From a virus: DNA of 64,000 nt. The notes under the pieces were generated by a model. The model had not been told where the DNA came from. It made no database searches and was given only the letters and a program-made list of their open reading frames with translations. The position numbers were made by a program, and so were the translations under genes. Of this stretch, positions 1 to 18,176 are shown in pieces; the first letter of the stretch is position 1; the number at the start of each line of letters is the position of its first letter. The stretch lies in the IMG/VR virus record IMGVR_UViG_3300037067_022543. One strand, given 5' to 3'.

Positions 1-1766
1 CTAACAATATCTATTGGCTTGTTGTTAAATTCTTCAATACCATATTTCTTAATAGAGTTTCTAATCAAAGAGCGAGTGTGATCTGTAAGAAACTTTATAT
101 AGTTTTCAACATTGAACCATTTGTTAGGATCATCTACGAAATTAATTCTATATGACACTGATAACTCAACATCAACAAGATCCTTAGTAGTTGCTGAAAT
201 CTTATCTGACACTTTGTTGTTTTTAACTCTCAAATATGCCGTTTTAATTAACCTATCATCATTTTTAGGGGTTCCAGTTGAAAGTTCAAGAATTTCCGGA
301 TTTTCGTCATATTCAAACAAAATAGTTTTAGGACCAACAACTACTTTTCTGTCGCCGCTATTGTTAACAACTTGAACAGCGTAACCCGTCCAAACTTTAA
401 CTGTAACAGCTCCGTCATATTTACTATTTATTGTTATAGTTCTTGGCTCAGTGAATTTTGTATTTCTACTCATTTCGTCAGCAGCAAAATCCTCTGCTCT
501 GACATTATCAGTACTATACATACTCATGCTTCTACTAAGTTTACGAACATCAACAACTCCTGATTCATTTAAACCAATTGCAGACAAGTCGTTGCCAATT
601 TTTTTATTGTAATCTTTAGCTTCTGAATTGCCAGGGTACAACAAATCAATAACTTTATCAGACAACACCCGTTTAACAATTACTTCTTTTCTTGGATCTG
701 GTAGAAACATTTTTGGACCTTGCACCAGATTGACTTCTCCGTTCTCCTTATTAAGAACATAACGGGCTTCGCCTTTTGGTATGGCTATTGCATACATAAT
801 AGTATCTTTACCATATCTAATAATAGCATGTTCAGCTCTTGGGTAATAAATTTTTTGGTCTTTTCCCGTAATGAACATTTCATCGCCTTCACTATATGAT
901 TTATCGCCATCTTTATCACCATCTTTATAATCTGCAAGAACCTTAATGTGTATTCCCATGTTATCATTAAGTTCTAATGCTTTAAATACTCGCTTGCCGT
1001 CCTTTTCAACAAAAGTTTCTGTTGGTTTTGGAAAAACAACTGATGGTCCACGAACATATCTCTTATCTCCGTTTTCGTCTAGCAACCAACAATATTCCAA
1101 TCGTTCAAGGGTAACAGCTTCGCGAACATATTCTTGACCGTTTTCACTCTTCAATATTTCCAGACCAGTTGGTGGGATATAAAAAGAAACTTCCGTTCCT
1201 TTAATTATAATCAATTGCCCCATTTTTAGTTCTTGCGGATTAATTGCTGTTTTGACAACATTAGTTCCGTCAGTCAATTTAATTACGGATGTTCCCCAAA
1301 ATTTTTTGGCTTGTTCTTCATTATAAACTCTAGCCACCAAATACTGGTTAGATCTTAATTGATGACCTTGCACAACTTCACCAATTTGTCTTGGGAAAAG
1401 AGCAAAAGTGCATGGTCCAGAAATGTTTATTTTTCTCCCCATATCAAGAGAAGGAGATTGTTGCTTGCCTTTTTGCGGACGAGTTTCGTGATTACCAGTA
1501 GGGGGATTGGTCAAAATAATGTATTCGCCTTCATTTGCAGAAGGGCATTGGCGAATAGCTTCTGGCTTAGTAACCTTAACGAACTTACCTTTTTCAGAAC
1601 TATAAACTACTGGAGTATCAGTATCTGCTAAACTTTGTTTACTTGGGCCTACAATACTAAACACATCTCCACTAGAATTGTCTTGAACCAAAGCATATTC
1701 GCCTTGAGCTACGATTAGATCTCCCCCGCGTTCCATACGATTATTAACTTCATAGTCTACTGCCAT
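1..1766 (-). CDS. Major vault protein (MVP)-like protein, N-terminal ~588 aa; C-terminus runs off the window start
   Basis: ATG at 1766-1764 preceded by AAAGGAGAAAAACT. Translation MAVDYEV...YALVQDNSSGDVFSIVGPSKQ and ...KVLADYKDGDKDGDKSYSEGDEMFITG...SYRINFVDDP aligns with MVP repeat segments ([46 protein letters not shown]). Not in the ORF track because the minus ORF is open to position 1. Confidence 0.8.
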   Translation of the reverse strand, partial: MAVDYEVNNRMERGGDLIVAQGEYALVQDNSSGDVFSIVGPSKQSLADTDTPVVYSSEKGKFVKVTKPEAIRQCPSANEGEYIILTNPPTGNHETRPQKGKQQSPSLDMGRKINISGPCTFALFPRQIGEVVQGHQLRSNQYLVARVYNEEQAKKFWGTSVIKLTDGTNVVKTAINPQELKMGQLIIIKGTEVSFYIPPTGLEILKSENGQEYVREAVTLERLEYCWLLDENGDKRYVRGPSVVFPKPTETFVEKDGKRVFKALELNDNMGIHIKVLADYKDGDKDGDKSYSEGDEMFITGKDQKIYYPRAEHAIIRYGKDTIMYAIAIPKGEARYVLNKENGEVNLVQGPKMFLPDPRKEVIVKRVLSDKVIDLLYPGNSEAKDYNKKIGNDLSAIGLNESGVVDVRKLSRSMSMYSTDNVRAEDFAADEMSRNTKFTEPRTITINSKYDGAVTVKVWTGYAVQVVNNSGDRKVVVGPKTILFEYDENPEILELSTGTPKNDDRLIKTAYLRVKNNKVSDKISATTKDLVDVELSVSYRINFVDDPNKWFNVENYIKFLTDHTRSLIRNSIKKYGIEEFNNKPIDIV

Positions 1767-2461: not shown

Positions 2462-2640
2462 TTTATATCTCTTGCTCTATTCAATAAAACTTTTAAATCA
2501 ATCTCGTTACTTTTGTGTCTGCCTTTTGGATCATAATCAAAGATCAAATCTCTATTATTTTCAATACATTTTTCTATGGCTTTTTCGGTTTTATCATTAA
2601 AATAGTACCAGGAGTAAGAGTAGCATAATAAAATATACAT
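2458..2640 (-). CDS. hypothetical small protein (60 aa)
   Basis: Minus-strand ORF at the head of the small-gene run. Confidence 0.35.
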   Translation of the reverse strand: MYILLCYSYSWYYFNDKTEKAIEKCIENNRDLIFDYDPKGRHKSNEIDLKVLLNRARDIK

Positions 2641-2767
2641 TGTGCTTTATCTTGCATATATTCTCCTATTATACTTCTTGTTCTATATTTAAACAAAGTT
2701 GCCCTTTATTTGTTAATTTCATTCAATTAGCAACTTATTTATCTCCTAAAAACATATTCATTATTTT

Positions 2768-3082
2768 TTAAAGAACATATTTTAATATAGCTTCGCCTTT
2801 TTTCTTAGCTTCTTGCACAAATTTACTTTGTCTAGCCATTTCCATTATACTAACAAAACTAATGTCTTCAGTTGATTTTTCATCAATAACAACTATAGTG
2901 CCATTTACGCCGTCAGGAGTTAATATACTTTCTATGGGTATGATTTCTAAATATAATTTATCTTGAATTCTGCTAATTGTAACAGAACAGTTTCCTAAAT
3001 TACAAGCAGGAGGTAAATTGCCATTATTAATAGTTATATCCCTATCAAATTGTTCCCATGAGTTCTTGTCTGCTTTATTCAT
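2768..3082 (-). CDS. hypothetical protein (104 aa)
   Basis: ORF preceded on the minus strand by TTGACA-N16-TATAAAT and by AAGGAG 8 nt before the ATG. Confidence 0.6.
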   Translation of the reverse strand: MNKADKNSWEQFDRDITINNGNLPPACNLGNCSVTISRIQDKLYLEIIPIESILTPDGVNGTIVVIDEKSTEDISFVSIMEMARQSKFVQEAKKKGEAILKYVL

Positions 3083-3102
3083 TATATTTTCTCCTTTATA
3101 TT

Positions 3103-3132
3103 AATTTATACAATTTTATATTTAATTGTCAA
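3103..3132 (-). promoter_or_regulatory. sigma70-like promoter (-35 TTGACA, 16-nt spacer, -10 TATAAAT) followed by SD AAGGAG
   Basis: Minus strand reads TTGACAATTAAATATAAAATTGTATAAATTAATATAAAGGAGAAAATATAATG. Confidence 0.6.
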
Positions 3133-3321
3133 CATTATATTATTGGCCTTCTGGCCAAGTAAAGCAATCTGCACTTCCATTAAAAACACACCATGCTTCT
3201 TTTATTTTTTCAAAAAAGGTTCTGTATTTATAATTTATAGGACGTGATGGGACCCACTTCCCGTTAATTTCAGTTGTTGCTCTATTTATACTTATCTGTA
3301 AGTTTTTTAATGTCCACATGA

Positions 3322-4074
3322 TTATTTATCCTTATTACTTATAACAACCCCTTTTTTAAACATTTCTGTTACATCATTATACCATTCTCCAGTAAAATTA
3401 CATTCTAATGTTTGCCTTATCGGTTTTATATTATCAGCTGCTATAATTATATGAAATCTGTATTCACCTTTCTTCAATAAATTACATAAATTAGTAGGAT
3501 CTACTTCCGTATCTAAATATAAAATAGTTTTATAACAATCACAATCGTCTGCATTCTTGTAAACACGTTTATAAACTTTATTATACCATTTGTAGTTATC
3601 TTTAGGATTAATAATATGAAATAAATCACAATATTTTGTTAAACCAGGCGATACCCTGTACATGTTGTTTTTATCATCTATCGTGGATGTTTTAGACCAT
3701 TTTAAATTCATAGGAATATAGTCTTCTTTTTCTCTATAACTTTTATCAGGCTGCTTCTCTTCTATTTTTGCAAGAAAAATTTCTGAATTTTCAATTGGTG
3801 TAAATATTTTAAAAACATTAAAAACATTAGGATAGGTAGATGCTTTAAAAACACTAAAAAACTTAGGATAGACGTTTTCTACCCCAATTCTATAGTAAAA
3901 ACAATTTGAAGATAAATCTTCTCTCTGAATTAAAGTTTTAGAAATATTGTCTAGTGACATCCTTGTTATTGGTTTTATAAAAAATCTTTTTATGTTATCC
4001 TGAAATAAAGCTAAAAATGAAAGAATTAATGAAAGACTTGAAAAAACAATTGAAATCTTTTCTGTTAAAGTCAT
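3322..4074 (-). CDS. hypothetical membrane-anchored protein (250 aa)
   Basis: N-terminal hydrophobic segment (IVFSSLSLILSFLALF); Cys cluster near the C-terminus. Confidence 0.55.
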   Translation of the reverse strand: MTLTEKISIVFSSLSLILSFLALFQDNIKRFFIKPITRMSLDNISKTLIQREDLSSNCFYYRIGVENVYPKFFSVFKASTYPNVFNVFKIFTPIENSEIFLAKIEEKQPDKSYREKEDYIPMNLKWSKTSTIDDKNNMYRVSPGLTKYCDLFHIINPKDNYKWYNKVYKRVYKNADDCDCYKTILYLDTEVDPTNLCNLLKKGEYRFHIIIAADNIKPIRQTLECNFTGEWYNDVTEMFKKGVVISNKDK

Positions 4075-4107
4075 AATATTATCTCTCTTTTTGTTTTAAA
4101 TATATTA

Positions 4108-4380
4108 TTACCATGCTATTTTTTCAAGTTGGTCTTCTAGTTCTTTAATTCGTGCTTGCAACTTTCTGACACGAGAAGGTTCGGTATGTAAACTGTTTGG
4201 CCAACCGCAAAAAGTTTTAATCTGATTCCCACCTTCAGCAGCAGAAGCACAATCTTCTAATGTACGTCCCCATGTTGCAACTTGTTGTTTTTTTTCATGC
4301 TTCTCCCAACCAAAAACTATACACTGATCTAAACCAAATTTAACTGCAAAATCTTTTACGGATTTAATTGATATTCTCAT
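4108..4380 (-). CDS. hypothetical protein (90 aa)
   Basis: ORF with an upstream TTGACA-N16-TATAAAT promoter (4401-4430, minus strand) and AAGGA in SD position. Confidence 0.5.
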   Translation of the reverse strand: MRISIKSVKDFAVKFGLDQCIVFGWEKHEKKQQVATWGRTLEDCASAAEGGNQIKTFCGWPNSLHTEPSRVRKLQARIKELEDQLEKIAW

Positions 4381-4400
4381 TTTGTTTTCATCCTTTCCTT

Positions 4401-4430
4401 ATTTATAACTCAAAATCATATCTTGTCAAT
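4401..4430 (-). promoter_or_regulatory. sigma70-like promoter for 4108..4380
   Basis: Minus strand reads TTGACAAGATATGATTTTGAGTTATAAAT. Confidence 0.5.
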
Positions 4431-4537
4431 AACATTTTTTAATCTTTTTTCAGCATATTCACAATAGTTAGGGCTTATTTCTATCCCCATATATAATTTA
4501 GTTTAAAAATAAATTTTTACATTCATTATTAATTTTA

Positions 4538-4987
4538 TCATAATTTCAAATAGTTTTTAAAAGATATATCTCCAAAATACCCTTTTTGCATTTGAAGAAT
4601 ACAAGTTTGAACTCTAGACCCCTTAAAAACATTCCTCGGAAGATGTGTAATTGATTTTAATCCAAAGTTTATTATATCACTGGTTCTTTTAGTTGAATTA
4701 ATTAGAACTAACCATGGCATTAAGGCTATTATATTGTTACTCATTTCCATGCATCTATATAGTATTTTATATCCTAATTTCATGGGGGTAAACGGAGGAT
4801 TCATTACAATACAATCAAAAATTGATGATGACAGCTGAAAGAAGTCTTCTGGGGCTGTCACATTATAATTACCTAATTCTTTAACAATATTGCCTTCTCC
4901 AGGAGTTGGTTCTAATATGGTTTTGCATCCATTTGGAACTAATGAAACCATATATTTGCATATTTCTGGTGGAGTTTGAAAATTCAT
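4538..4987 (-). CDS. small gamma-class N6-adenine DNA methyltransferase-like protein
   Basis: Motif X QTPPEICKYM, motif I ILEPTPGEGN, motif IV VMNPPF. Confidence 0.55.
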   Translation of the reverse strand: MNFQTPPEICKYMVSLVPNGCKTILEPTPGEGNIVKELGNYNVTAPEDFFQLSSSIFDCIVMNPPFTPMKLGYKILYRCMEMSNNIIALMPWLVLINSTKRTSDIINFGLKSITHLPRNVFKGSRVQTCILQMQKGYFGDISFKNYLKL

Positions 4988-4995
4988 CTAAGAAA

Positions 4996-6102
4996 TTATA
5001 CAACAAAAATATCTTTAATAATATTTTTATTTCTTACAAGCCAATTATAAACATCTGTAACTGTATTTAAAACACTCTTTTTAGGTTTCCATCCACTTTC
5101 ATTCATTATTTTTGAATAATCTGTAACATAAAATGGGATATCTAATTCTCTTTCTTTTTCATCTTCTGATATATTTATTTTGTTATTAGTAACATTTTGA
5201 CATATTTGTGTTAACTCTTTTAATGAAACGCTATTTTCCATGCCACCTCCAACATTATAAACCTTACCATTATATTTTTTAATATTTGAAAGTTGAATTT
5301 TTAAAAGACTATATAAATCATCAATGTGCAAAACATCTCTGACTTGTTTGCCTTTGCCACCAAATCCTATATAACTCAATTTTCCACCAAAAAAGTGTTT
5401 AGCAACCCAAAAAGAAATTATTCCCTGATCATCTTTACCCATTTGCCACGGTCCTGCAATAACTCCACATCTATTGATAATCCCCATTATATCATATGTC
5501 TCTACATATTCCTGTATAATTATTTCAGAAGCTAATTTTGTTGCTCCGTACAAAGATCTCGTACCTTCAAGTGTAAATGATTCTGAAATGCCTTTTTCAT
5601 TTACTCCAACGATGTTCTGATTTTTAGATATTGAAAATCTATGAGGCAATTCATCAAAAGAAATCTTTGTTAATGGTTTTATAGGATAAACTCTGCTTGT
5701 GGAAATAAAAACAAAATCTGCTCCAGTTTGTCTTGCTGCTTCAATACAATTTATCGTTCCCATAAGATTGGTATTAATTATATATGCTGGAGATTCTTTA
5801 AGACCAGCAAGCACAGAAGGCTCTGCAGAACATTCTATGAATACATTTGGTTTTTGAGGGCAAAATTTTATTGCTTGAAATATATCATCTTTATTTCTAA
5901 CATCTCCATATACAAATATAACACCAGCTTGTTTTAGCCTATTGATGTTAATTTCGGAACCTCTTCTTTTAAGATTATCTAATGAAATCACACAATGGCA
6001 AGGGTTATCCTTCTTAAACTTTATTGCAAGGTTTGAGCCAACAAACCCAGCCCCTCCTGTAATAAAAATTGTTTTCAATATTAAATCCTTATATTTTTGC
6101 AA
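4996..6102 (-). CDS. NAD-dependent epimerase/dehydratase (extended SDR, sugar-nucleotide epimerase-like)
   Basis: Rossmann motif [12 protein letters not shown] at the N-terminus; catalytic YGATKLASE (YxxxK). Confidence 0.8.
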
Positions 6103-7147
6103 AGATCTTGTAAAATGCTACTCATGTTATGTTGATATTCCCAATTAGGATAATGATTTTTAAACTTAGAAACATCGGAAATATACCAAATATGGTCTCC
6201 ACTTCTGTTTTGATCAACATATTCTATATTAGCTTTTTTACCAACCATTTCTTCAATTTTAAATATTGCTTCCAGCATTGAAATATTTGAATATCTTGAC
6301 CCACCAATATTATAAACTTCTCCTTTTCTTGGGTTTTGATGAAAACTATCAAAAGCATTTATTAAATCAGAAGCGTGAATATTATCTCTGACTTGCTTAC
6401 CTTTATATCCAAAAATTTTGTATGGTTTTTCTGACTTTATGCACTTAACTAAAAATGCCAAAAAACCGTGCAGTTGTGCAGCAGAATGGCTAGAACCCGT
6501 CAAACAACCCCCTCTAAACACTACTGTTTTTAAGTTAAAATATCTTCCATATTCTTGGCACATAATATCGGCAGCGACCTTGCTTGCACCAAAAACACTA
6601 TGCTTTGATTGATCTATTGACATTGTTTCATCTATCCCATTGAAATATGGGTGGTCTTTTTTAATTTCAAATCTAGTTTCCATTTCTTCAAATGGCAAAA
6701 GGTTAGGAGTATCACCATATACTTTATTTGTTGAAGTAAATATAAAATTAGTTTCTGGAGCATAATTTCTTAAATTTTCTAACATAACCAAAGTACCAAA
6801 AGCGTTTACCCCAAAATCAGTAAAAGGTTCGCGAGCAGCCCAATCATGGGACGGTTGTGCAGCACAATGAACTATAAGCTCCAATTTTTTCCCATATTTC
6901 TTAAAAATGTCACTTATTTTTTCTTTATTTTGTATATTTATATTATAATGTTCATAATTATTAAATTGCTTAATAAGAGATTTTATATTCCAAGAAATAT
7001 TGCCGTCTTTGCCAAAGAAATATTTTCTAAAATTATTATCTATACCTATAACTTTTTTATTTTTTTTAGCATAAAACCTAACTGCTTCAGATCCTATTAA
7101 TCCTCCTGAACCAGTTACTAATATTGTGTCTTTTGTTGAAATAGATA
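6081..7147 (-). CDS. NAD-dependent epimerase/dehydratase (second copy); start codon non-canonical or unclear
   Basis: The track ORF 6081..6884 holds YGASKVAAD (YxxxK). The Rossmann motif [15 protein letters not shown] lies in frame upstream (to about 7147) with no ATG, GTG or TTG; only ATA or ATT overlapping the upstream TAA stop. Confidence 0.65.
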
Positions 7148-7954
7148 TTAACCCTTATGTTTAAAATATAAATCTGCTTGTCTTTTAATAATTTTTGCTT
7201 CTATAGGAGATTTTGAAAATTGAGTTATAGAATGAGGCTCAACCATTGAAACTATTTCTTTTATTGTTTTAATTCCAAATTTTTTATCAAACCAAAAAAA
7301 TAATGTATGCTCATCGTGGAAAGATGGCAAAGGACATTTTATTCCTCTTTTCGTTGTAACATAATACCAAGCATTAGATTTTAAACGTTGATATAATTCT
7401 TCATAAGTGTTTAAATATTCTTCCCACATAGTTTGATCATTACAATATATAACACATGAACATATTAGAGCATTTCTAACTATGCCTTTAATGTTTTCAT
7501 CTTCTGGTTTAATAGGAACTCTTTGGTCACGCCTATAATTACATCTTACGGGACTTTGAAAATGAGTTAAATTATCCTTTTTTAACCCATAAAGATCCCA
7601 CATTCTTTTATCTGGCCATTTTAAAATATTGACATCCATATCTAACAATAGCATTTCAGTACTCTTTCCAAATAGCTTAAAGGCTTCGTTTGCTAAATAT
7701 GTTTTGTTATAATAAATTGGAATTTCTGAGTGCGGTCTTGCATCTGGGTTAGAATTTATTTTAATAATATTTTTAACTTTTTTAGTTTTGAGATATTCTT
7801 CGTTTTTATCTCCTAAAACAAAATAAGTAAAAGGTTGAATATTGGGATTTTCTTTGAAAAAATAGTTCTCATTTGCTAAAGCAGTATCTACCATATTCCT
7901 TAATCTATCATCATAAACATTGCCAAATAAAGTTCTAATTATTATTTTACTCAT
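7148..7954 (-). CDS. hypothetical protein, possible glycosyltransferase (DxD-like LLLDMDV)
   Basis: ORF between the epimerases and the FkbM methyltransferase; weak DxD motif only. Confidence 0.4.
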
Positions 7955-8618
7955 TAAAAATCTCCTTTAAAAAAATACTTATGTGACTCCATCTCCTATG
8001 AGAAGAACAAAAAATCTTGTGACTATTTGAAAACTTATTTGCCCAAACAACTGTTTCCTTTTTGTCTATCACATTGGGAACACAATGATGAACTTCCATG
8101 CTTAGTCCCATGGAATTTCTTATTACATATTCTGAAGGAAAGTGACCAAAAATAACATATTCTCCACCTTCGGTATCAATTTTAATGAATAATCCTTTTA
8201 AATCAATATTGTATTTTTCAATAATACTACTCAACAAAAGAGAAGAACACCTTTCTTGCCCTGATACTTCCTTTGGAATATTAGAAAAAGAATGAGCTAA
8301 TGAACATTTTCCTGATATTTTTACAACTTCATCCCCATTTCCTAAAGCAATATTAAATGTTTCTATATCAAGGTTGGCTGTATTCTTTATTAAATTATTA
8401 TAATTTTCTTTATCTGGTTCTATGCTTATTATTCTAGCATTGGGATGAAAAAATCTAAAAGCAACAGAATACAAACCACAATTAGCTCCTATATCTAAAA
8501 TTGTTTTAATGCTATCCAAGGGGAATAGACCTATGCCATACATATACATATAAGGCAAAGAATAACTCCGCATTTCATTCAATAAAGCATCTTTACTGTG
8601 TTTTGGAATAATCATCAA
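7947..8618 (-). CDS. FkbM-family SAM-dependent methyltransferase
   Basis: DIGANCGLYSVAF motif. Confidence 0.7.
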   Translation of the reverse strand: MMIIPKHSKDALLNEMRSYSLPYMYMYGIGLFPLDSIKTILDIGANCGLYSVAFRFFHPNARIISIEPDKENYNNLIKNTANLDIETFNIALGNGDEVVKISGKCSLAHSFSNIPKEVSGQERCSSLLLSSIIEKYNIDLKGLFIKIDTEGGEYVIFGHFPSEYVIRNSMGLSMEVHHCVPNVIDKKETVVWANKFSNSHKIFCSSHRRWSHISIFLKEIFNE

Positions 8619-8724
8619 GATCCTTTTTCAATTAATATAGTATAATTATTCAACAAGGAAAATATTATGACCTTGAAAAAGGATTTTTTTTGTAAAAAAA
8701 GAATAATAAAAAAGGAGATAAAAC

Positions 8725-9045
8725 ATGAAAATTACCATGTCTAAACGTCAGTGGGAAGAATTAATTAATAGAGAAGAAACTTTAAACAAAAAAGATCAAT
8801 CAAAAGAAACAACTTGGAACAAAAAAGCTCAATCAGAAAATGCAAAAGATGTAATTTGTGATTCTGGTATAAAAGGATGGCAAGATAAATTACAAAATGT
8901 TTATCAATCTTTAGAAGAACTTATTTCTTATGATAATATATATGGAATTTGCAAAAGATTAGGATATGAAGATCCTAAAAAATGTTGGGAAGAAAACCCC
9001 ACTATACAGGGGTCTATTAATCCATCTGATTTAAAAAGGGTTTGA
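8725..9045 (+). CDS. hypothetical protein with conserved N-terminal leader (MKITMSKRQWEEL)
   Basis: SD AAGGAGATAAAAC before the ATG; first of three tandem plus-strand paralogs sharing the N-terminus. Confidence 0.6.
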   Translation: MKITMSKRQWEELINREETLNKKDQSKETTWNKKAQSENAKDVICDSGIKGWQDKLQNVYQSLEELISYDNIYGICKRLGYEDPKKCWEENPTIQGSINPSDLKRV

Positions 9046-9054
9046 AAGGAAAAC

Positions 9055-9381
9055 ATGAAAATTACATTATCTAAACAGCAATGGGAGTTCATCGGAAATA
9101 AAACAGGTTGGATTAAATCTGATAAAAAACCAATAAAAGATATAAATCAAAAAGCCCAACTAATCAAAAAAACCTATTTTTATCACATTAATTTAAATGA
9201 ACGTGGACAATTTTATGCCGATGTAAGAGATGAAAAAGGTAATACCATTTTTGAAATTAAGGGTTTTGAAATATTTGAAGACGGTTTCATGACAAATGTT
9301 AAAGACATGAACGGTTTGAAAAATTATTTAGTAAACCTAAGCTTAATTAGCAAACAAGACGAGTTGAAATATATAGGCTAA
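9055..9381 (+). CDS. hypothetical protein with conserved N-terminal leader (MKITLSKQQWEFIGNKTGWIK)
   Basis: SD AAGGAAAAC; the N-terminal 20 aa are shared with 9383, 61768 and 63338 family members. Confidence 0.6.
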   Translation: MKITLSKQQWEFIGNKTGWIKSDKKPIKDINQKAQLIKKTYFYHINLNERGQFYADVRDEKGNTIFEIKGFEIFEDGFMTNVKDMNGLKNYLVNLSLISKQDELKYIG

Positions 9382-9382
9382 C

Positions 9383-9727
9383 ATGAAAATTACATTATCT
9401 AAACAACAGTGGGAAATACTTGGTAATAAAAAACATATCACATCTCAAAATCTTGAAACAGTCAAAACTCTACCAAAACTTGATGACAGAGAAACAACTA
9501 GAGCAATAAGAGATGCTATTATTGCAGAAGAAGGAGCTATTAAGCAATATGAAGTTGTAGCAGATTCTACAAATAACAAAAAAATTTCTAAAGTTCTTCA
9601 AGATATAGCAGATGAAGAAAGAGTGCACGTTTTTGAATTACAAGAATTATTAAATTTTCTTTTGTCAGATGAAAAAAAGTTTGAACAAGATGGCAAAAAA
9701 GAAATTGCTGACTTAATGAAAAAATAA
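9383..9727 (+). CDS. leader-family protein with ferritin-like / rubrerythrin-like (EncFtn-like) C-terminal domain
   Basis: MKITLSKQQWEILGNK leader; AIIAEEGAIKQYE...ADEERVHVFEL resembles a diiron ExxH motif pair. Confidence 0.55.
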   Translation: MKITLSKQQWEILGNKKHITSQNLETVKTLPKLDDRETTRAIRDAIIAEEGAIKQYEVVADSTNNKKISKVLQDIADEERVHVFELQELLNFLLSDEKKFEQDGKKEIADLMKK

Positions 9728-9819
9728 AAATGGCGTATTGTAATATTCCTGTTGTCTTGCCATTAAGGCCGTACAGAAAATAAAACCTTACGCCATTTAA
9801 TATTTTAAAAACTTTCTAA

Positions 9820-10146
9820 TTAAAAAGGAAGATTGTCAGGGTCTTTATCTTCTATAGAAGGCAAATCTTCTTTTTTAGGTTCTGTTCCAGCAGAAACATT
9901 AGTGTTAGTCTTTGATGAATTTGATGAATTTGATGAAAGGGTTCCTACTGACTTTTCGCTTGGGATACTTAGATTAAGCCAACCGTTCCATTCTGAACCT
10001 ACAGGAAGACCGTTAATCTTAGCACTCAACTGCCCCTTTTCATTTTCAAAAACAGCACCACAAGTAAACCATCTGGCTTTCTTCTCACCATTAGATTCAT
10101 ACTCTCCAACTTTTGCAACTAAGTCATATTTTCTTTTTGAACTCAT
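9820..10146 (-). CDS. hypothetical protein with SSB-like acidic C-terminal tip (DKDPDNLPF)
   Basis: The C-terminus ends in D/E-rich ...LPF like bacterial SSB tails (DDDIPF); the N-terminal part is too short to be a canonical OB fold. Confidence 0.4.
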   Translation of the reverse strand: MSSKRKYDLVAKVGEYESNGEKKARWFTCGAVFENEKGQLSAKINGLPVGSEWNGWLNLSIPSEKSVGTLSSNSSNSSKTNTNVSAGTEPKKEDLPSIEDKDPDNLPF

Positions 10147-10220
10147 CGTTTCTCTCCTTTGTTTGTTGTTTATATATTATACAATATTATCTTGTTTTTT
10201 TATATTTAATTGTAATTTTA

Positions 10221-11249
10221 TTATACATCATCTTTAGGAAAGTTAATTTTTATTTTCACAAAAGATATTGACAATCTATTCCAAGTATATGTTACTCCAA
10301 TTCCATCATTTAGTTCAACTATTGATGGATAAGAAAAACTACCTTCTCCTTCTTGTATATGTACCTGTTTTTTCCAAGTTTTACCGTTATCATTTGACGA
10401 AATAAGAGATAATGGAGTCCTATCAGCCCAATTACCAGAAACAGGGTTATATACCAAAAATAATAAACCTCTGGTTTTAAGAATATCTATTCCACTATTA
10501 TTATTGGGCAATTCTATGGGGTAAGCTTGACTCCATGTTTCTCCATAATCAATAGAATCGCTTCTAAATATGAATCCTGCCGTACTACGCAACAACATGT
10601 GTACATTTCCGTCTGTAGACTCCCATAAGGTCGGCTGAATTACACCACCATATTTTCCATTTTTTAAACCATATCTTTTCCTATCAAAATCTATAAGTTT
10701 AGATTTTTTCCATGTTTTCCCTTCATTCTTACTAATATCAACAAATGATTTCCACACAACATCCTTAGGTTCAAACATATTACTATGAATGGTTTGTTCT
10801 ACTGAAGACGGGGCTACCCAATTACCATTTGACAAAACGATAGGTTTACTTCTAACTGGACCTCTGTCAAATTGGTCGTGAATGTGGTCAAAATCAATTT
10901 CATTTAAATTAATTAGTTCTTTTGGTTGACTCCATTTTTCGTTCTCAAAAACCATATAATATGTCACCCAAGCATCTATGGAAGTTCCCATTTTAAAAAA
11001 AAGATATGTTTTGTTTTTAAATGTAAACAAAACTGGGTTCCAATGAGCTACATCATCAACTTTAGCTATAATAGCAGGTTTACTCCAAAACTTTTCATTA
11101 GGAAATAGACACGACATCCATATTGCTGTATCCGGATTAGATTCTCTACTACCAGCAAACCAAGCAACAAATATTCTACCGTCTTTCAATTGAGTTATTG
11201 TTGACGCATGACATTGGGGAAAATATTTTTGTGGTTCAAATATCAGCAT
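10221..11249 (-). CDS. BNR/Asp-box repeat glycosyl hydrolase (sialidase-like)
   Basis: Three Asp-boxes: SKNEGKTW, SIDYGETW, SNDNGKTW. Confidence 0.7.
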   Translation of the reverse strand: MLIFEPQKYFPQCHASTITQLKDGRIFVAWFAGSRESNPDTAIWMSCLFPNEKFWSKPAIIAKVDDVAHWNPVLFTFKNKTYLFFKMGTSIDAWVTYYMVFENEKWSQPKELINLNEIDFDHIHDQFDRGPVRSKPIVLSNGNWVAPSSVEQTIHSNMFEPKDVVWKSFVDISKNEGKTWKKSKLIDFDRKRYGLKNGKYGGVIQPTLWESTDGNVHMLLRSTAGFIFRSDSIDYGETWSQAYPIELPNNNSGIDILKTRGLLFLVYNPVSGNWADRTPLSLISSNDNGKTWKKQVHIQEGEGSFSYPSIVELNDGIGVTYTWNRLSISFVKIKINFPKDDV

Positions 11250-11274
11250 TTAATTAAACCTTTCATAAAACAAC

Positions 11275-11721
11275 TTATATTTTCTTAACATCTTTATTAA
11301 TTTTTTTATTGGCAAAAATGTCGAAAGAACTTAATGCACAACCAGCTATTAAATTATGACCATAGCAGAACATTCTAAGTAAACCACTCTTTGGCAAACA
11401 ATCAATACTCCAAGGCATTATATCAATTTTAAATGGAACACCAATATTTTTTTCTGTCCATTTATAGCCATAACCACCAATACCGTTAATGTGCAAAACA
11501 TCACTACATCCTGAAAGTCTACATATTGGTTCATCTTTTATGCACGCTACAAAATCAATACATCTATAACCACTGTCATGCGTTTTCCTAGTAGGCAAAA
11601 TTACTAAGGAATCAAATTCTCCGATATCTTTATCAAATGATTCCCTATAAGGAAGGCTTTCAAAATCTTTTATGGTCATATTTGTTATTCTTTTTGATTT
11701 TGTTAATTCTTTTTTATTCAT
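11275..11721 (-). CDS. hypothetical protein (148 aa)
   Basis: ORF with AAAGGAAAT SD-like sequence upstream. Confidence 0.45.
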   Translation of the reverse strand: MNKKELTKSKRITNMTIKDFESLPYRESFDKDIGEFDSLVILPTRKTHDSGYRCIDFVACIKDEPICRLSGCSDVLHINGIGGYGYKWTEKNIGVPFKIDIMPWSIDCLPKSGLLRMFCYGHNLIAGCALSSFDIFANKKINKDVKKI

Positions 11722-11832
11722 TTTATTATTTCCTTTAATAATTTATTCATCTAAAGAATACAAACATTTAACATCTAAATCACCAACATTGCTGAAAATA
11801 TCTTTGTGTAGTAAAAATTAACATAATATCAT

Positions 11833-12210
11833 TCACCACCATAATTCTTGAAAATATTTAGAGAACAATTGCATTCCTTCATTATAACTCTTCCATTTGG
11901 CCTTGCAATCATCTCTACTAACTGCTTCATCCTGTTTTAGGTGCCATTCAAATGCAAAAATAATTTTATCCAAAATAATTTGCCATTCTCCTTGTTTTTG
12001 AAATTTGCATGGATAACACGGAGATATGTCTCTAAATCTTTTTAATCTAGGAAGGACAAATGCTGCAATAGTAGTGTTCAAGTTCCATGTTTCTGAATTA
12101 CAAAACCCCATTTCTTTCAATTGTTTTTTATACTTTTTATATCTTTCATCATGCTTATCTAAAAACATAGGGCATTTCATTGACCATTGCCATTTTTTAT
12201 CTGATTTCAT
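11833..12210 (-). CDS. hypothetical protein (125 aa)
   Basis: Minus-strand ORF in a co-directional array. Confidence 0.45.
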   Translation of the reverse strand: MKSDKKWQWSMKCPMFLDKHDERYKKYKKQLKEMGFCNSETWNLNTTIAAFVLPRLKRFRDISPCYPCKFQKQGEWQIILDKIIFAFEWHLKQDEAVSRDDCKAKWKSYNEGMQLFSKYFQELWW

Positions 12211-12221
12211 AAATACTCCAT

Positions 12222-12650
12222 TTATTCTTCAGAAACATTTAAACAAACAATATTTCCAGAAGATATACTATTATCTATTATTTCTCTAATTTCTTCATTA
12301 TGACGAGAAATTCTAATAGCAGCCAATTCCCAATCTTTTTTAAATTTATAATTGTCAACACTTTTTATCATTTCAATTGTTTCTTTATATTCTTTATCAA
12401 AATAATTGTCAATAAATTTCTTAACATCATCTATTCCCATAGCTTCTACGCGATTGCTGTCTGAATAGACTTCTGCTGTTTTAATCAGTTTTATAATGTT
12501 TGGATCTTTTCTGCCGCAATGGATACAAGGTTGAGAATTCTTAAAAGCAATAATAAAAGATGTTGAACTACTGTTAGAAACAAAGTTTTCTCTAATTTTC
12601 ATTTTTATCCTTTTGTTTTTTTTCTTCATTATTAAAGACATAAATTTCAA
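12222..12650 (-). CDS. hypothetical protein (142 aa)
   Basis: Minus-strand ORF. Confidence 0.45.
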   Translation of the reverse strand: MKFMSLIMKKKNKRIKMKIRENFVSNSSSTSFIIAFKNSQPCIHCGRKDPNIIKLIKTAEVYSDSNRVEAMGIDDVKKFIDNYFDKEYKETIEMIKSVDNYKFKKDWELAAIRISRHNEEIREIIDNSISSGNIVCLNVSEE

Positions 12651-12807
12651 AAAACTCGTTCAGTGCTTTAAAATCTCCATTTTTAGTTCTATCCCTTAAT
12701 TCTTTTAAATTATCCACAAATTCATTAATGGAAAACTCATAATATTGCTTTTCTTCTTTTTTGCAAATTAATGCATTTTTTAAACAATTTTCTATATTAC
12801 TTCTCAT
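12592..12807 (-). CDS. hypothetical small protein (71 aa)
   Basis: ORF overlapping the 3' end of its neighbour; weak call. Confidence 0.3.
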   Translation of the reverse strand: MRSNIENCLKNALICKKEEKQYYEFSINEFVDNLKELRDRTKNGDFKALNEFFEIYVFNNEEKKQKDKNEN

Positions 12808-13162
12808 TCCATTTCCCCGTTTCTTTAATTGCCCTAATAACTCTGTAGACTAGTTCTCCTTGATGTCCACCACGCTCTAACATTTCTTTTTCTTTTTCCC
12901 ATATTTTGCCAACCATATCTTTGCATTCTAGACACGTTATTATCTCGTTATAATAGTTTAGATTATCATAATCTTCATTAGTAGCATAACATTTTTCTAA
13001 AAACAAATATCTATGTTCCTTGCAAACATCCTTTTTACAAACATAGCAAGTTTCTATGGTAGCAAAACCACCAGCACGTCTATAATTTTTATCTGAAGAA
13101 CAATTACAAAAATCGCATTTGCATTCCTCAATTTTGACTTCAATTTTTTTATTGACCCTCAC
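12797..13162 (-). CDS. Cys-rich (zinc-finger-like) hypothetical protein
   Basis: GTG start; multiple CxxC pairs (CKCDFCNC, CYVCKKDVC). Confidence 0.45.
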   Translation of the reverse strand: MRVNKKIEVKIEECKCDFCNCSSDKNYRRAGGFATIETCYVCKKDVCKEHRYLFLEKCYATNEDYDNLNYYNEIITCLECKDMVGKIWEKEKEMLERGGHQGELVYRVIRAIKETGKWNEK

Positions 13163-13299
13163 TATTTATCCTTTAAAAATTTCTTTACTTTTTTATACAA
13201 CCTGCTATAAATTATACAAATTTAAATTAATTGTCAATAAATAAAAGATTATTAATTAAAAGTAAAGTATAATACTGATAAACAACAGGAGTATATGTT

Positions 13300-13602
13300 A
13301 TGGATAAAAACAAACACAAAGCTCTTATTGATGAATTCGTTGAAACCTGTCCTTGTAAGGATGAATATTGCTCTTTAAGGGAACTTATAATGCATCTTTT
13401 CCAAGATCCAAGAACTCTTGTACAAGCAAAATGTTTGGAAAAGTTTAAATATGAGCGTTCAAAAGAACTTGGTAAAGATATAGGAAGTGCAGCAGTAGCA
13501 GAATGGATAGATCTAGGTTTTGCAAAGAAATTTTCTGATTGTTATAGTGAAGATAAAACTATTAATCAAATTTATAAAGAAATAAAAAATAGCAAGGTTT
13601 GA
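13300..13602 (+). CDS. hypothetical protein (100 aa)
   Basis: Plus-strand ORF with SD AGGAG 7 nt before the ATG and TATAAT at 13268-13273. Confidence 0.5.
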   Translation: MDKNKHKALIDEFVETCPCKDEYCSLRELIMHLFQDPRTLVQAKCLEKFKYERSKELGKDIGSAAVAEWIDLGFAKKFSDCYSEDKTINQIYKEIKNSKV

Positions 13603-13614
13603 AATTATTATATA

Positions 13615-14061
13615 TTAATCCTTATGTTTTCCATATAACTGTCTATAACACTTAAAATACTTTATGGCATCTTTAACCCCGTTTAATATAGTAGCATCAT
13701 ATAGACAACCCTGAATCCATCCTGGGACATCCTGTATAGTTATATCATCAAAATAACAAACAATGGGTTTATTGTAAATAGCAGCAAAAGTTATTTCGCT
13801 TAATGTTCCTGCTCCTTTAAGAACTGCAGAATCTATTTTTACAAGAAAATGCTCGCAACGAATCAAGTTGTTAATGTCTCTAATAACAATATTATTAATT
13901 ACTTTTTGTTTATACAAAAAAGAACATTTTTTAGGAACCTTTATCTTGTCTGGAATAATGACATCATAATATTGCAAAAGAGATTCCTTAACTTCATTCC
14001 TCCAATTGAAAGGATCTTTTGATTTTTCTATTGCTCCTGACAAATATATACTTGGTTTCAT
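13615..14061 (-). CDS. nucleoside 2-deoxyribosyltransferase-like protein
   Basis: IYLSGAIE at the N-terminus and DSAVLKGAGTLSEITFAAIYNKPIV, matching the NDT/Rcl-type Rossmann motifs. Confidence 0.55.
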   Translation of the reverse strand: MKPSIYLSGAIEKSKDPFNWRNEVKESLLQYYDVIIPDKIKVPKKCSFLYKQKVINNIVIRDINNLIRCEHFLVKIDSAVLKGAGTLSEITFAAIYNKPIVCYFDDITIQDVPGWIQGCLYDATILNGVKDAIKYFKCYRQLYGKHKD

Positions 14062-15233
14062 AATTTACTTTCAATTTTTCCGCCACTAGTAATCTCTATA
14101 AATTCACATTTTTCCTGAAATTCTTTTAAGTTTTTAGCCCCAACATAAGAAAATGATGATTGCAAGCCATGTTTAATATGTTTTAAAATATGTTTAACAT
14201 GCCCCCTAAAAGGAGCCATTTTTGCAACTCCTTCTACAAATTCATTTGCATTTCCATTTGAAACTTTATTTTCTCCGCTAGCAGAACCAGCATAAACTTT
14301 ATAAAACTCCCCTCTTTCTCCTGTAAAAACATTTCCTGGAGTTTCTGTTGATCCGGACAACATGGAACCGAGCATAACTGCATGAGAATATTTTAAGCTC
14401 TTTGCAATATCTCCTATTGATGACATGCCTCCATCTGCAATTATCTTTATGTGTTTAATGCCTTGTCTTATAAACTCTTCATTAATTGATTCCAAAGCAT
14501 AAAGTTGAGGAACACCAACCCCCGTATTTTTCCTCGTTAAGCAGGCCGAACCAGGACCGACGCCGCACTTAATACAATCTGCTCCCCATTCTGCAATATC
14601 GTAAGCACCTTCTGGAGTTGAAACATTACCTGCTATAATATATATATCTTTTAATCCTTTTTCTTTTATCCATTTTAATATATTTTTCATTACTAAAGAA
14701 TGGCCATGGGCAATATCTATGCAAAATATTTTTGCTCCAGCTTCGTATAAACTGTCAAACCTTTTTTTATCTTCATCTTGAACTCCTATTGAAACTCCAA
14801 TTTCATGGTCTTTATTACAAATACTTTTAATATTAGGATGTATATTAAAAGTACTACTATTAAAACTACTACAAGATTCTGAATATTTATCTTCATCTTT
14901 TAAAATAACAGTTGAGTTTCCTAAACTAATAGTATTACTTATAAGCCCTTCATTAACAGAAAAATGGTTTTTAACTTCTAAAAAATCTTCTACAGCTTGT
15001 TCAATACTGCAAAATCTATGTAAAATTCCCATACCGCCATTTTCAATCATTGCTATTGACATTTTAACGCCGCAAATAGTCTTCATATTTGCTGCTATAA
15101 TTGGCAAATTTATCTTAAAAAATCCAAAATCACTAGATAAATCAACACTTCTTCTAGACTCTATTTCAGAATATTTGGGGACAATTAGTACGTCACTAAA
15201 TGTATATGCTTCTTTATTTATTTTTTTATCCAT
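14058..15233 (-). CDS. IMP dehydrogenase / GMP reductase family protein (no CBS insert)
   Basis: CIDIAHGHS and the catalytic loop GVGPGSACLTR of the IMPDH/GMPR TIM barrel. Confidence 0.8.
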   Translation of the reverse strand: MDKKINKEAYTFSDVLIVPKYSEIESRRSVDLSSDFGFFKINLPIIAANMKTICGVKMSIAMIENGGMGILHRFCSIEQAVEDFLEVKNHFSVNEGLISNTISLGNSTVILKDEDKYSESCSSFNSSTFNIHPNIKSICNKDHEIGVSIGVQDEDKKRFDSLYEAGAKIFCIDIAHGHSLVMKNILKWIKEKGLKDIYIIAGNVSTPEGAYDIAEWGADCIKCGVGPGSACLTRKNTGVGVPQLYALESINEEFIRQGIKHIKIIADGGMSSIGDIAKSLKYSHAVMLGSMLSGSTETPGNVFTGERGEFYKVYAGSASGENKVSNGNANEFVEGVAKMAPFRGHVKHILKHIKHGLQSSFSYVGAKNLKEFQEKCEFIEITSGGKIESKL

Positions 15234-15248
15234 AATTGTGCTCCTTTA

Positions 15249-15620
15249 TTATCCACCCATTTCAATATAATCTCTAGTAAAATTACGATAGGCATACCCG
15301 TCCTCATCAAATTTAATTGGATATTTTTCGTTGAAAACGCGGTCTTCTGCATCGTGTCTGCTCGTTGCTACTCTTGCTCTTGCTAAATTAACTTCCATTT
15401 CTTCTATTATCTTCCAATAATCTTCCCATTGTTTTTCCGTCAATTCACTATTGGATTGCCGCATATTTAGTAAAATTTCTTCTGACGGAAATATTTGCAA
15501 TAACTCTGCACTTGTGCCTATAGAGTTGAAACCCATGAGGTCTTCACATATGCCTTTAAGTTTTCTATAATGACTAATTAAATGATTGAAATATTTGTTC
15601 TCAATGTCAGTAATTTTCAT
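15249..15620 (-). CDS. hypothetical protein (123 aa)
   Basis: Minus-strand ORF. Confidence 0.45.
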   Translation of the reverse strand: MKITDIENKYFNHLISHYRKLKGICEDLMGFNSIGTSAELLQIFPSEEILLNMRQSNSELTEKQWEDYWKIIEEMEVNLARARVATSRHDAEDRVFNEKYPIKFDEDGYAYRNFTRDYIEMGG

Positions 15621-15630
15621 TTATTTTCCT

Positions 15631-15915
15631 TTAGAAGGAAGTCCACGCTAACTCTTTAAGTCTGGAATCCAAAACAGAGTTTTTAGTTGTTGTTTTTTTA
15701 TAAACCTTACCAGCTTTACTTTTTAATAAAGGGCATTTTTCTGGAAATCCAGTATCGCATTCTGGATGACTAATAACATAGGCGTTTTCTAGTTTGGTAT
15801 TATCAATTGAAGGGTGTTTGCATATCATCGCTGGGCCAGTACCGCCGTCAATTCCGTGAAAAGGGCATTGGTTACAATTCTCTATTTCTTTTTCTACTAT
15901 CATTTTTAATTTCAT
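15631..15915 (-). CDS. Cys-rich hypothetical protein (94 aa)
   Basis: CNQCPFH...CKH...CDTGFPEKC. Confidence 0.45.
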   Translation of the reverse strand: MKLKMIVEKEIENCNQCPFHGIDGGTGPAMICKHPSIDNTKLENAYVISHPECDTGFPEKCPLLKSKAGKVYKKTTTKNSVLDSRLKELAWTSF

Positions 15916-15982
15916 CGTGTTCTATCCCTTCTATTATACCAATTCCACGAAGTGTTTTTATATTTATTTATTCATAATCACA

Positions 15983-16681: not shown

Positions 16682-16693
16682 CTATATTTCTCC

Positions 16694-17206: not shown

Positions 17207-17208
17207 AA

Positions 17209-17925: not shown

Positions 17926-17980
17926 TTTATTCCTCGTTTTTTAAATCACGGTCACATTATAAAAGTTTTTAGTTTTTATT

Positions 17981-18175: not shown

Positions 18176-18176
18176 T

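Follow-up and report, generated by a model that had tools for sequence, protein, structure and literature searches.

Candidate carbohydrate-active modules of a probable huge bacteriophage: an orphan glycosyltransferase cassette with tyvelose-epimerase-like partners and a separate sialidase-fold protein

It is well established that phages can modify the O-antigen of their hosts and that some tailspikes are sialidases, and glycosylation enzymes are already known as phage-encoded cargo. In Cluster O mycobacteriophages, an O-methyltransferase gene is followed by three glycosyltransferase (GT) genes, and these enzymes modify capsid and tail-tube proteins (Freeman et al. 2023, as summarised in PMC11600133). 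A further point of reference is provided by the CDP-tyvelose 2-epimerases (TyvE), which catalyse NAD-dependent epimerisation at C2 via a 2-keto intermediate: they convert CDP-Glc to CDP-Man or interconvert CDP-paratose and CDP-tyvelose, and some convert GDP-Glc to GDP-Man (PMC13098431, PMC12188384). The signature described for TaTyvE in a 2026 structural paper consists of the triad Thr124/Tyr164/Lys168, a TNK segment, a VAM segment, Gln205, and Arg237 and Arg299 on the α-phosphate; the TNK-segment mutants N125A and K126A are inactive (PMC13098431). Here we describe the carbohydrate-active genes in a 64,000-nucleotide stretch of viral DNA, the IMG/VR record IMGVR_UViG_3300037067_022543 (the whole of this stretch is hereafter called the window), among which is a cassette that resembles both of these systems in part.

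An initial annotation of the window, made from the sequence by eye, had placed glycan-building enzymes on a phage-like element. That observation was largely correct and well above chance, and most of the proposed families were right: two sugar-nucleotide short-chain dehydrogenases/reductases (SDR1 and SDR2), an FkbM methyltransferase, a DxD glycosyltransferase, a GT11-like enzyme, a GT-B enzyme and a sialidase-fold protein with Asp-boxes, here called BNR_2 (Table 1). The genes had also been said to sit together. This is true of a cassette at 4996-8618; overall, however, the carbohydrate genes occupy four separate loci and not one cluster, and the BNR_2 gene is set apart from the cassette by divergent plus-strand genes at 8725-9727. 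On balance, we lean towards the view that a large phage carries here several independent carbohydrate-active modules as auxiliary cargo.

Table 1. Features of the window, in order of position. L001 is a near-identical relative contig; ORF, open reading frame; SAM, S-adenosylmethionine.
Feature	Length	Coordinates	Strand	Remarks
Small ORF	149 aa	4538..4987	-	EPTPGEG and NPPF motifs; 8 nt downstream of SDR1
SDR1, CDP-tyvelose-2-epimerase-like extended SDR	368 aa	4996..6102	-	PF01370, 1.3e-35
SDR2, CDP-tyvelose-2-epimerase-like extended SDR	~353 aa	6081..7142	-	PF01370, 1.4e-35
Recombination/divergence tract		6110..7011	.	all 150 L001 differences, inside SDR2 (blastn, difference map)
Orphan GT-A-fold DxD glycosyltransferase (GT-A)	268 aa	7148..7954	-	predicted fold and invariant DxD
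FkbM-family SAM-dependent methyltransferase	223 aa	7947..8618	-	first cassette gene; stop overlaps GT-A start by 8 nt
BNR_2 six-bladed-propeller protein	342 aa	10221..11249	-	PF13088, 1e-60, 205.9 bits; transcription unit separate from cassette
313-aa ORF	313 aa	22946..23887	-	overlaps GT11-like stop by 14 nt; GT nature unproven
Divergent GT11-type fucosyltransferase-superfamily member (predicted)	287 aa	23874..24737	-	fold, motifs, transitive homology
Probable divergent GT-B glycosyltransferase, 'group 1'/GT4 type	338 aa	32939..33955	+	alone on plus strand
tRNA arrays		35095-36900 and 60623-62926	-	13 genes in total

The methyltransferase, GT-A and SDR cassette

Four tightly packed minus-strand genes make up the cassette, in the order FkbM methyltransferase, GT-A, SDR2 and SDR1; their ends overlap by 8 nt, 1-3 nt and 22 nt, respectively, and the genes are translationally coupled. 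The first product matches TIGR01444 fkbM_fam (6e-18, 65.7 bits, cutoff 37.7), PF05050 (2.8e-8, 34.5 bits, cutoff 22.7) and the methyltransferase family phrog_8156 (9.7e-11). For the GT-A protein there was no match in Pfam (with E-values up to 10), NCBIfam or PHROGs, nothing significant in sequence and profile searches of the PDB, and no relative in a scan of IMG/VR; only 8 relatives are known. In its structural model, an acidic DxD motif follows strand four of a Rossmann-like GT-A core, and the best structural matches are to GT8-type and toxin-type protein/glycan transferases, not to JGT or TarP-like enzymes. The protein appears to be an orphan transferase with no curated sequence family.

In a relative found in the one metagenome scan, contig L012, a GT-A protein that is 64% identical to that of the window is encoded directly ahead of a single TyvE-like SDR with a normal ATG start; this SDR keeps the TNK segment, the Tyr, the Lys, Gln205 and both phosphate-binding arginines, and is 45% identical to TaTyvE. 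Because the adjacency recurs in L012, we consider the GT-A and TyvE-like SDR pair to be the conserved core of the cassette, and the conserved pairing supports the idea that the transferase uses the product of the epimerase. The FkbM gene accompanies this pair in L001, and an ORF of matching length lies upstream of GT-A in contig L011; no FkbM-length ORF was found in the short stretch upstream of GT-A in L012. At the other end of the cassette, the 149-aa ORF is 94.6% conserved in L001 and has a weak, below-cutoff match to the N6_Mtase family (PF02384, E=0.001); it is possibly a mini methyltransferase, and whether it belongs to the cassette is uncertain.

Searched against the PDB, both SDRs are closest to TyvE structures: SDR1 matches 9rl0 at 3.5e-42 and 1orr at 2.8e-40 (next class 1.3e-22), and SDR2 matches the same two entries at 3.7e-41 and 1.5e-38 (next class 1.5e-23). 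For both, the next-best class is that of the dTDP-glucose 4,6-dehydratases, ~18 orders of magnitude weaker than TyvE. Judged by sequence, therefore, the best solved relatives of SDR1 and SDR2 are CDP-tyvelose 2-epimerases, not generic epimerase/dehydratases. We aligned both SDRs, their alleles and a relative with the TaTyvE sequence over the signature positions. SDR1 retains the Thr/Tyr/Lys triad, Gln205 and both arginines; SDR2 reads Thr/Phe/Lys at the triad and retains T-N-K and both arginines, with Gln205 replaced by His. The VAM segment is missing from both, and reads PSV in SDR1 and PSH in SDR2.

The SDR2 gene is unusual at its 5' end. It had been assigned the range 6081..7147, which is impossible since the length is not divisible by three. 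The open frame spans 6081-7148, back to the GT-A stop, and no ATG, GTG or TTG occurs before 6884 (codon 89). An in-frame ATT at 7142-7140 lies 9 nt past an AAGGG core, inside the 4-10 nt spacing of other genes, and the alternative, an ATA at 7148, is only 3 nt from that core; because its Shine-Dalgarno (SD) spacing fits, the ATT is favoured and is the likely start. The frame overlaps the upstream TAA stop at a junction, AAGGGTTAATATCTATT, that is conserved in L001 and L011, and it is open and conserved in three strains. In a related contig the gene caller reports SDR2 as a 234-aa fragment only, cut short because there is no canonical start.

The cassette also marks a point of variation between strains. 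L001 shows zero differences from the window over 7012-21249, and since all 150 of its differences are confined to the tract within SDR2, there is a sharp recombination breakpoint inside the cassette. Past this tract, L001 has a 390-bp insertion with an extra 96-aa ORF, followed by ~92% identity over SDR1. A breakpoint of this kind between otherwise identical strains is what diversifying exchange of a module would be expected to leave. The variability of the neighbourhood is further evident at 2641-4120, a stretch that is missing from L001 and that holds a 250-aa ORF (3322-4074) and a 104-aa ORF (2768-3082), neither with family matches. In related contigs the modules occur separately from one another: the BNR_2 gene occurs without the epimerase/methyltransferase cassette in L003 and L004, the GT11-like gene without the 313-aa ORF or BNR_2 in L010, and a truncated relative of GT-A without an SDR, adjoining a dCMP deaminase gene, in L009. 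We read these parts as modular phage glycan-building cargo.

The BNR_2 protein and the distal glycosyltransferase-like genes

The BNR_2 protein has three Asp-boxes, two canonical and one near-canonical (SIDYGETW, SNDNGKTW and SKNEGKTW), and belongs to a family of >7,400 homologs to which no function has been assigned; bacterial members annotated 'sialidase family protein' are 45-50% identical to it. PDB sialidases are reached at only 2e-5 when the single sequence is searched and at 8e-11 with a profile of the family. Nine residues are invariant: H14, E36, R129, E151, Q205, R221, R277, Y307 and R325. In the alignment with the sialidase NanA, Y307 corresponds to the nucleophile Tyr (chain residue 453) and R221 to the second Arg, and R277 falls 2 residues off the third. 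On the other hand, the position opposite the Glu that partners the nucleophile (NanA chain residue 348) is taken by Q205, a residue that does not vary among 25 diverse members of the family. We take the corresponding NanA residue numbers to be E647, R663, R721 and Y752, which agree with the constant offset of 299 in our alignment. Ungapped extension of a weak alignment with the N-terminal part of NanB (8 bits) tentatively places the R-I-P motif opposite H14-A15-S16, of which H14 is invariant.

BNR_2 is a single domain (residues 24-316) with no virion-anchor or tail-fibre domain, and inspection of its N-terminus, MLIFEPQKYFPQCHAST, revealed no hydrophobic signal peptide. The gene sits among nucleotide-metabolism genes. 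Homologs in bacteria are encoded in sugar-catabolic loci, in the vicinity of which there are no obvious secretion genes; one such locus encodes an AraC regulator, a GFO/IDH/MocA oxidoreductase, an SDR and an alpha-L-fucosidase, and another a 3-keto-disaccharide hydrolase and a GH3 enzyme. Related large contigs keep BNR_2 at 61% and 51% identity beside an IMPDH gene, to which L003 adds an exonuclease and a DUF5662 gene; among 50,697 phage records only two short, unannotated entries are similar, and a scan of IMG/VR with the protein found no relatives. We conclude that BNR_2 is probably a clade-conserved cytoplasmic enzyme of sugar processing, and neither a virion depolymerase nor a demonstrable sialidase; it would have been acquired from bacteria, inherited separately from the other modules and conserved within the phage clade. 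The sialidase-type depolymerase of the initial annotation is not supported: the protein is a bare propeller, with no signal or anchor, that is remote from sialidases and has Gln for Glu. In L004 the BNR_2 gene is followed by a 287-aa ORF, which we considered as an ortholog of the GT11-like gene and rejected: the two agree in length but not in sequence (E=0.061).

Between the cassette and the BNR_2 gene, and divergent from both, the plus-strand genes at 8725-9727 are three tandem paralogous small ORFs of 106, 108 and 114 aa, all starting MKIT(M/L)SK(R/Q)QWE; the third has a weak rubrerythrin/ferritin-like match.

The GT11-like protein has a single Pfam match, to PF01531, and this falls below the cutoff (E=0.11, 12.2 bits, cutoff 23.9); among the PHROGs, it matches a family of glycosyltransferases (1.6e-8). 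Conserved across the ten members of its own family are G-x-G-N-x-F-x-Y, Q-R and S-Q-S-T-F-x-W-W, and with its structural model (predicted local distance difference test score, pLDDT, 84.6), NodZ, Arabidopsis FUT1, POFUT1/2 and FUT8 rank above generic GT-B enzymes. The assignment stands because of transitive homology through a homolog encoded in LR756504.1: the two are related over their full length, by tblastn (8e-19) and by hhalign (99.8%, E 2e-28, 236 columns), they share the motif pairs HiRlGDY/vQRLGDF and HSTFSWWAAYL/SQSTYSWWIAWL, and the homolog itself passes PF01531 (35.1 bits against 23.9). By fold, motifs and this homology, the ORF would encode a GT11-type enzyme, with donor and linkage predicted only. 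LR756504.1 is a deposited, unannotated 636-kb uncultured phage in which a cluster (our locus L014, 209573-224241) holds GT25, GT10 fucosyltransferase, GT11, PglD-like acetyltransferase and DegT aminotransferase genes; in the adjoining ORFs there are domains of Met-tRNA synthetase and of class II tRNA synthetases. Deposited huge-phage genomes therefore already include glycan clusters of several enzymes, fucosyltransferases among them.

The 313-aa ORF had been described as a second GT-like gene. Its only match is to the GT2 family PF00535, below the cutoff (E=0.007, 16.7 bits, cutoff 23.3); it has no relatives in IMG/VR or the phage collection, and it is absent from the syntenic region of L010. 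A relationship with the orphan GT-A family was rejected (hhalign probability 0.2%). It is possibly a GT-A/GT2-like partner of the GT11-like gene, which is unproven. As for the third gene, which had been called GT1-like, it appears to encode a divergent GT-B enzyme of the GT4 type. The ORF itself gives a best match of 0.024 to the GT4-conflict model, below the cutoff; its family contains 1,088 representative clusters, 490 of them at <=1e-30, and ~40% of sampled homologs reach Pfam group-1/GT4 models. Among 28 such homologs (39-47% identical), PF20706 GT4-conflict was matched by 12 (best 2.2e-6), PF13692 Glyco_trans_1_4 by 12 and PF00534 Glycos_transf_1 by 5. Sequence and profile searches of the PDB returned nothing significant for the GT11-like or the GT-B protein. 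Searches with family models place these two GTs in their families only indirectly, and BNR_2 at the level of fold or superfamily, not of GH33. Our literature searches on PF13088 in phages and on fucosyltransferases in jumbo phages found nothing useful.

The element and its genomic setting

The window has ~30% GC, and its genes lie nearly all on the minus strand. It encodes DnaK, HSP20, a UvrD helicase, a ResIII/DEAD helicase, IMPDH, a 5'-3' exonuclease, a Thg1-like enzyme, a radical-SAM protein, HNH endonucleases and at least 4 DNA methyltransferases; PHROG matches include HNH endonucleases, DNA methylases and a deoxyribonucleotidase. An SD-like core lies 4-10 nt upstream of 28 of the 49 genes that start with ATG. 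Relatives of the DnaK include 630-640 kb uncultured phages, and the nearest phage records at the protein level are uncultured genomes of 595-642 kb, all distant. That the window belongs to a known phage was not borne out: besides this distance, a megablast of 24 kb of it against the 50,697 phage records gave no match. Taken together, the 13 tRNAs, the DnaK, the PHROG matches, the one-strand gene arrangement and the SD cores indicate, as indirect evidence, that the element is part of a large, probably huge and lytic, bacteriophage. Low GC, HSP70 and DUF4379 repeats had prompted us to consider a giant eukaryotic virus (Nucleocytoviricota); this origin was rejected in view of the bacterial-type SD sequences, the phage PHROG matches and the lack of enrichment of the Mimivirus-type promoter motif AAAATTGA (20 observed, 24.6 expected).

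As to provenance, L011 (Ga0172380) comes from a municipal landfill metagenome (PMC9723747). A search of genome contigs with SDR1 yielded only a 25%-identical Bacteroidales match and gives no clue to the host. A FliW homolog at 40906-41463 (minus strand; PF02623, 5.5e-25) is a hint that the host is flagellated and has a FliW/CsrA circuit, and that this circuit is manipulated, FliW being a flagellin-assembly factor and CsrA antagonist. Over 2500-11800, promoter-like sites are at chance level (57 against 56.9 expected), and terminator-like sites (8 against 3.5 expected) define no operon boundary.

Several neighbouring genes merit description. Just downstream of the sugar cassette, at 1-1766 (minus strand, partial), is a gene for a Major Vault Protein-like protein, the full length of which is 810 aa in L001 (18113-20545); it matches PF11978 MVP_shoulder (3.7e-23, 82 bits), PF17795 Vault_3 (4e-8) and, weakly, SPFH/Band_7, and is unusual phage cargo. 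Between the GT11-like locus and the exonuclease gene, 21668-22852 (minus strand) encodes a 394-aa protein with four DUF4379 treble-clef zinc-finger repeats (1.1e-76). In L010 an IS605 OrfB/TnpB (Cas12f-like TNB) gene (3714-4769) lies between the exonuclease and DUF5662 genes, a position at which the window has none. At 24896-26784 (minus strand), an AAA+ ATPase is interrupted at Walker A by what is apparently a natural split intein, the N-fragment of which is very short. The upstream ORF (25903-26784) has the C-terminal end ...LLFGSPG followed at the junction by CVLAETKIKIRKKSNDGKHKKIIVQ and the stop, and the downstream ORF (24896-25864) runs from MQIGDEKE to SNHIVSHN, with a match to the intein C-terminal motif TIGR01443, and continues at the junction with TGKTSLAKA. 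The corresponding ATPase of L010 is uninterrupted (...SAPGCGKTSLAKA), with 75% identity over the extein.

The minus-strand region 27772-30514 contains an HD-phosphohydrolase fused to a CoaD-like nucleotidyltransferase, a Thg1-like tRNA-His guanylyltransferase (2.5e-30) and a radical-SAM protein (3.8e-13); L003 likewise has Thg1, plus a CoaBC (DFP) gene. We had considered the first of these, the ORF at 27772-28875 with its HD and cytidylyltransferase-like parts, as a candidate enzyme of sugar activation. The model that it matches best is CoaD/PPAT (TIGR01510, 100.2 bits against a cutoff of 103.3), so that this ORF looks like one of coenzyme metabolism instead. The tRNA arrays include tRNA-Ile(TAT) and two copies of tRNA-Pro(TGG) of unusual length (88 and 92 nt). 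Finally, 42586-43146 (minus strand) has a weak match, below the cutoff, to a Tad2-like Thoeris anti-defence domain (PF11195, E=2.3e-4).

Proposed function, alternatives and comparison with known systems

From the gene identities, folds, motifs, linkage and strain variation described above, we propose the following substrates, order of steps and acceptor. In the cytoplasm of the infected cell, a TyvE-like SDR with tightly bound NAD would act as epimerase on a nucleotide-hexose of the host, C2 being the likeliest position; the GT-A enzyme would move the epimerised sugar onto an acceptor by means of its DxD/metal site; and the FkbM enzyme would O-methylate the transferred sugar. SDR1 would be the likelier active copy because its Thr/Tyr/Lys triad is intact, and SDR2 more likely an altered or non-redox partner. 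The GT11-type enzyme (with the coupled 313-aa ORF) and the GT4-type GT-B could extend the same or another glycan, using host GDP-fucose or other host donors. The acceptor may be a protein or a lipid/polysaccharide glycoconjugate; candidates are the virion proteins of the phage itself, as in Cluster O mycobacteriophages, and a glycan of the host envelope, both of which are compatible with the sequence data.

A number of points weigh against this proposal. The full TyvE signature is present in neither SDR, and the catalytic triad is complete in SDR1 only: SDR1 has T-S-R instead of T-N-K, the segment in which N125A and K126A inactivate TaTyvE, and SDR2 has Phe at the site of the catalytic Tyr ('hsvFgasK' against 'hspYgcsK'). 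The epimerase step is for this reason uncertain. Confidence in the structural model of GT-A is only partial (mean pLDDT 66.5, with <50 at residues 123-164 and 234-268). We found no sugar-1-phosphate nucleotidyltransferase, GDP-mannose dehydratase or GDP-fucose synthase in the window, so that host nucleotide sugars would be needed; a pathway run entirely by the element's own enzymes, as had been suggested, is not supported. There is no virion gene among the scanned ORFs, and hence proximity to capsid or tail genes is of no use as a guide to the acceptor; judged by its position, amid genes of DNA and nucleotide metabolism, the cassette would be no less suited to a DNA target. Moreover, the parts are separate in relatives, and the modules may therefore not cooperate. 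The single fucosylated, methylated glycan of the initial annotation is accordingly not supported as the product of one pathway.

The alternative to which we give the most weight, unlikely as we judge it to be, is that there is no shared pathway at all: the genes would be unrelated, horizontally acquired cargo, some of it decaying, whose co-occurrence in a 30-kb stretch is incidental. Independent inheritance in L003, L004, L009 and L010 is in keeping with this, as are the location of the cassette in a recombination-prone variable region and the defects of both SDRs, with SDR2 lacking the catalytic Tyr and a canonical start, and SDR1 lacking TNK. Yet the L001 allele of SDR2, only 80% identical, has the same Phe, from which it follows that this residue is maintained and is not a sequencing error; the conservation of the open frame in three strains, that allele included, argues for purifying selection rather than decay. 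Furthermore, the four cassette genes are translationally coupled, and GT-A/SDR adjacency persists down to 64% protein identity.

As regards the target, the main rival is hypermodification of DNA, though a rather improbable one: the GT-A (possibly also the GT-B) enzyme would glycosylate hydroxymethylated bases, with the SDRs and the methyltransferase tailoring the donor or the sugar, as a guard against host restriction. Phage GT-A and GT-B enzymes do install mono- to trisaccharides on 5-hydroxymethylcytosine, and the clusters concerned (C5-MT/5mYOX or ThyS plus GT; Pyle et al.) can hold epimerases and secondary GTs (bioRxiv 10.1101/2023.12.21.572611). Like those clusters, the window has GT-A and GT-B enzymes, and epimerase relatives, among DNA-metabolism genes; it is dense in DNA methyltransferases, nucleotide-metabolism genes and helicases, and the truncated GT-A relative in L009 adjoins a dCMP deaminase gene. 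Unlike them, it has no 5mYOX or ThyS partner: Pfam found no 5mYOX/TET-JBP dioxygenase and no thymidylate-synthase-like hydroxymethylase among ~50 ORFs of the window, which covers 64 kb of a larger genome, and the chemistry depends on one or the other of these enzymes. Such pathways are usually clustered, ~65% of GT contigs without such a neighbour having been judged less likely to act on DNA, and the text of the preprint has 0 mentions of fucose or fucosyltransferases (bioRxiv 10.1101/2023.12.21.572611). The structural neighbours of GT-A also differ, being GT8- and toxin-type.

The model put forward in the initial annotation, that of a temperate element effecting serotype conversion by a fucosylated, methylated glycan and carrying a virion sialidase as depolymerase, now seems very improbable. 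In its favour, the window does encode glycosyltransferases, a methyltransferase and a protein of sialidase fold. However, scanning with Pfam and PHROGs revealed no virion, integration or lysogeny gene, specifically no integrase, repressor, Gtr-type gene, membrane polymerase/flippase or other membrane enzyme of O-antigen modification, among ~50 ORFs (those of at least 100 aa in these 64 kb). BNR_2, at only 342 aa, has neither an N-terminal virion-attachment domain nor a secretion signal, and its gene is placed among metabolic genes; it carries Gln for the catalytic Glu and, tentatively, His at the position of the RIP arginine; and its homologs are almost absent from the phage records and, in bacteria, lie in sugar-catabolic loci.

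We thus return to independent modules of auxiliary cargo. A more elaborate version is conceivable, in which a methylated glycan is made by the orphan GT-A, a transferase confined to this phage group and fed by an active SDR and a Tyr-less pseudo-enzyme SDR, and BNR_2, with His and Gln for Arg and Glu, performs a glycoside chemistry that is new, whether on that sugar or on a host sugar that competes with it, the acceptor being the virion or even DNA; we hold this to be a long shot, marginally more so than DNA hypermodification. Phage-encoded glycosylation matters because it can alter virion recognition, glycosylated mycobacteriophage capsids eliciting a weaker neutralising-antibody response, and because it can also change the evasion of DNA restriction and the surface of the infected cell. 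To this known theme, which it extends without overturning current understanding, the locus adds a module of methyltransferase, orphan GT-A and TyvE-like SDR from an uncultured huge-phage lineage of landfill and other metagenomes. What is unusual is the orphan GT-A itself and two biochemically odd proteins: an SDR with a non-canonical start that has TNK and Phe in place of Tyr, and a sialidase-fold protein, rare in phages, with a remodelled active site.

In relation to the closest known systems, the locus shows both likeness and difference. With TyvE (1ORR, 9RL0), the two SDRs share the extended-SDR architecture and the phosphate-binding arginines (GKQVRD and R299), to which SDR2 adds TNK, and SDR1 the Tyr, Lys and Gln205. 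They differ in that identity is only ~34-35%, VAM is absent from both, and the CDP-sugar pathway genes (RfbF/G/H/S) are absent here, so that TyvE orthology and substrate are at most putative. The GT11-like protein has the superfamily fold and the motifs G-x-G-N-x-F-x-Y, x-R-x-G-D-(Y/F) and S-T-(F/Y)-S-W-W of GT11 fucosyltransferases (PF01531); in contrast to its LR756504.1 homolog, it has an extra insertion of ~20 residues (LKPDLKINNISDLDFRIRKN) and its gene stands outside any comparable multi-gene glycan cluster. BNR_2 resembles the GH33 sialidases (S. pneumoniae NanA and NanB) and the phage endosialidase tailspikes in its six-bladed propeller and Asp-boxes, and has a counterpart of the GH33 nucleophile Tyr and apparent counterparts, one of them 2 residues off, of two of the three arginines. 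It departs from GH33 in the invariant Gln at the partner Glu and, tentatively, the His at the RIP arginine, and in its membership of a large, uncharacterised bacterial subfamily of sugar-catabolic loci; from GH33 and endosialidases alike, it differs in lacking a signal peptide and any domain for lectin binding, anchoring or trimerisation.

With respect to the virion-glycosylation cassettes of Cluster O and related mycobacteriophages, the present locus has one orphan GT-A and two TyvE-like SDRs instead of three tandem GTs; its methyltransferase is of the FkbM type, no capsid or tail genes were found nearby, and host and lineage are unrelated. In both, on the other hand, a methyltransferase gene lies immediately upstream of a GT gene, the enzymes would be soluble and cytoplasmic, and the genes are accessory; by analogy of gene order, the Cluster O cassette appears to be the closest documented counterpart of the one described here.

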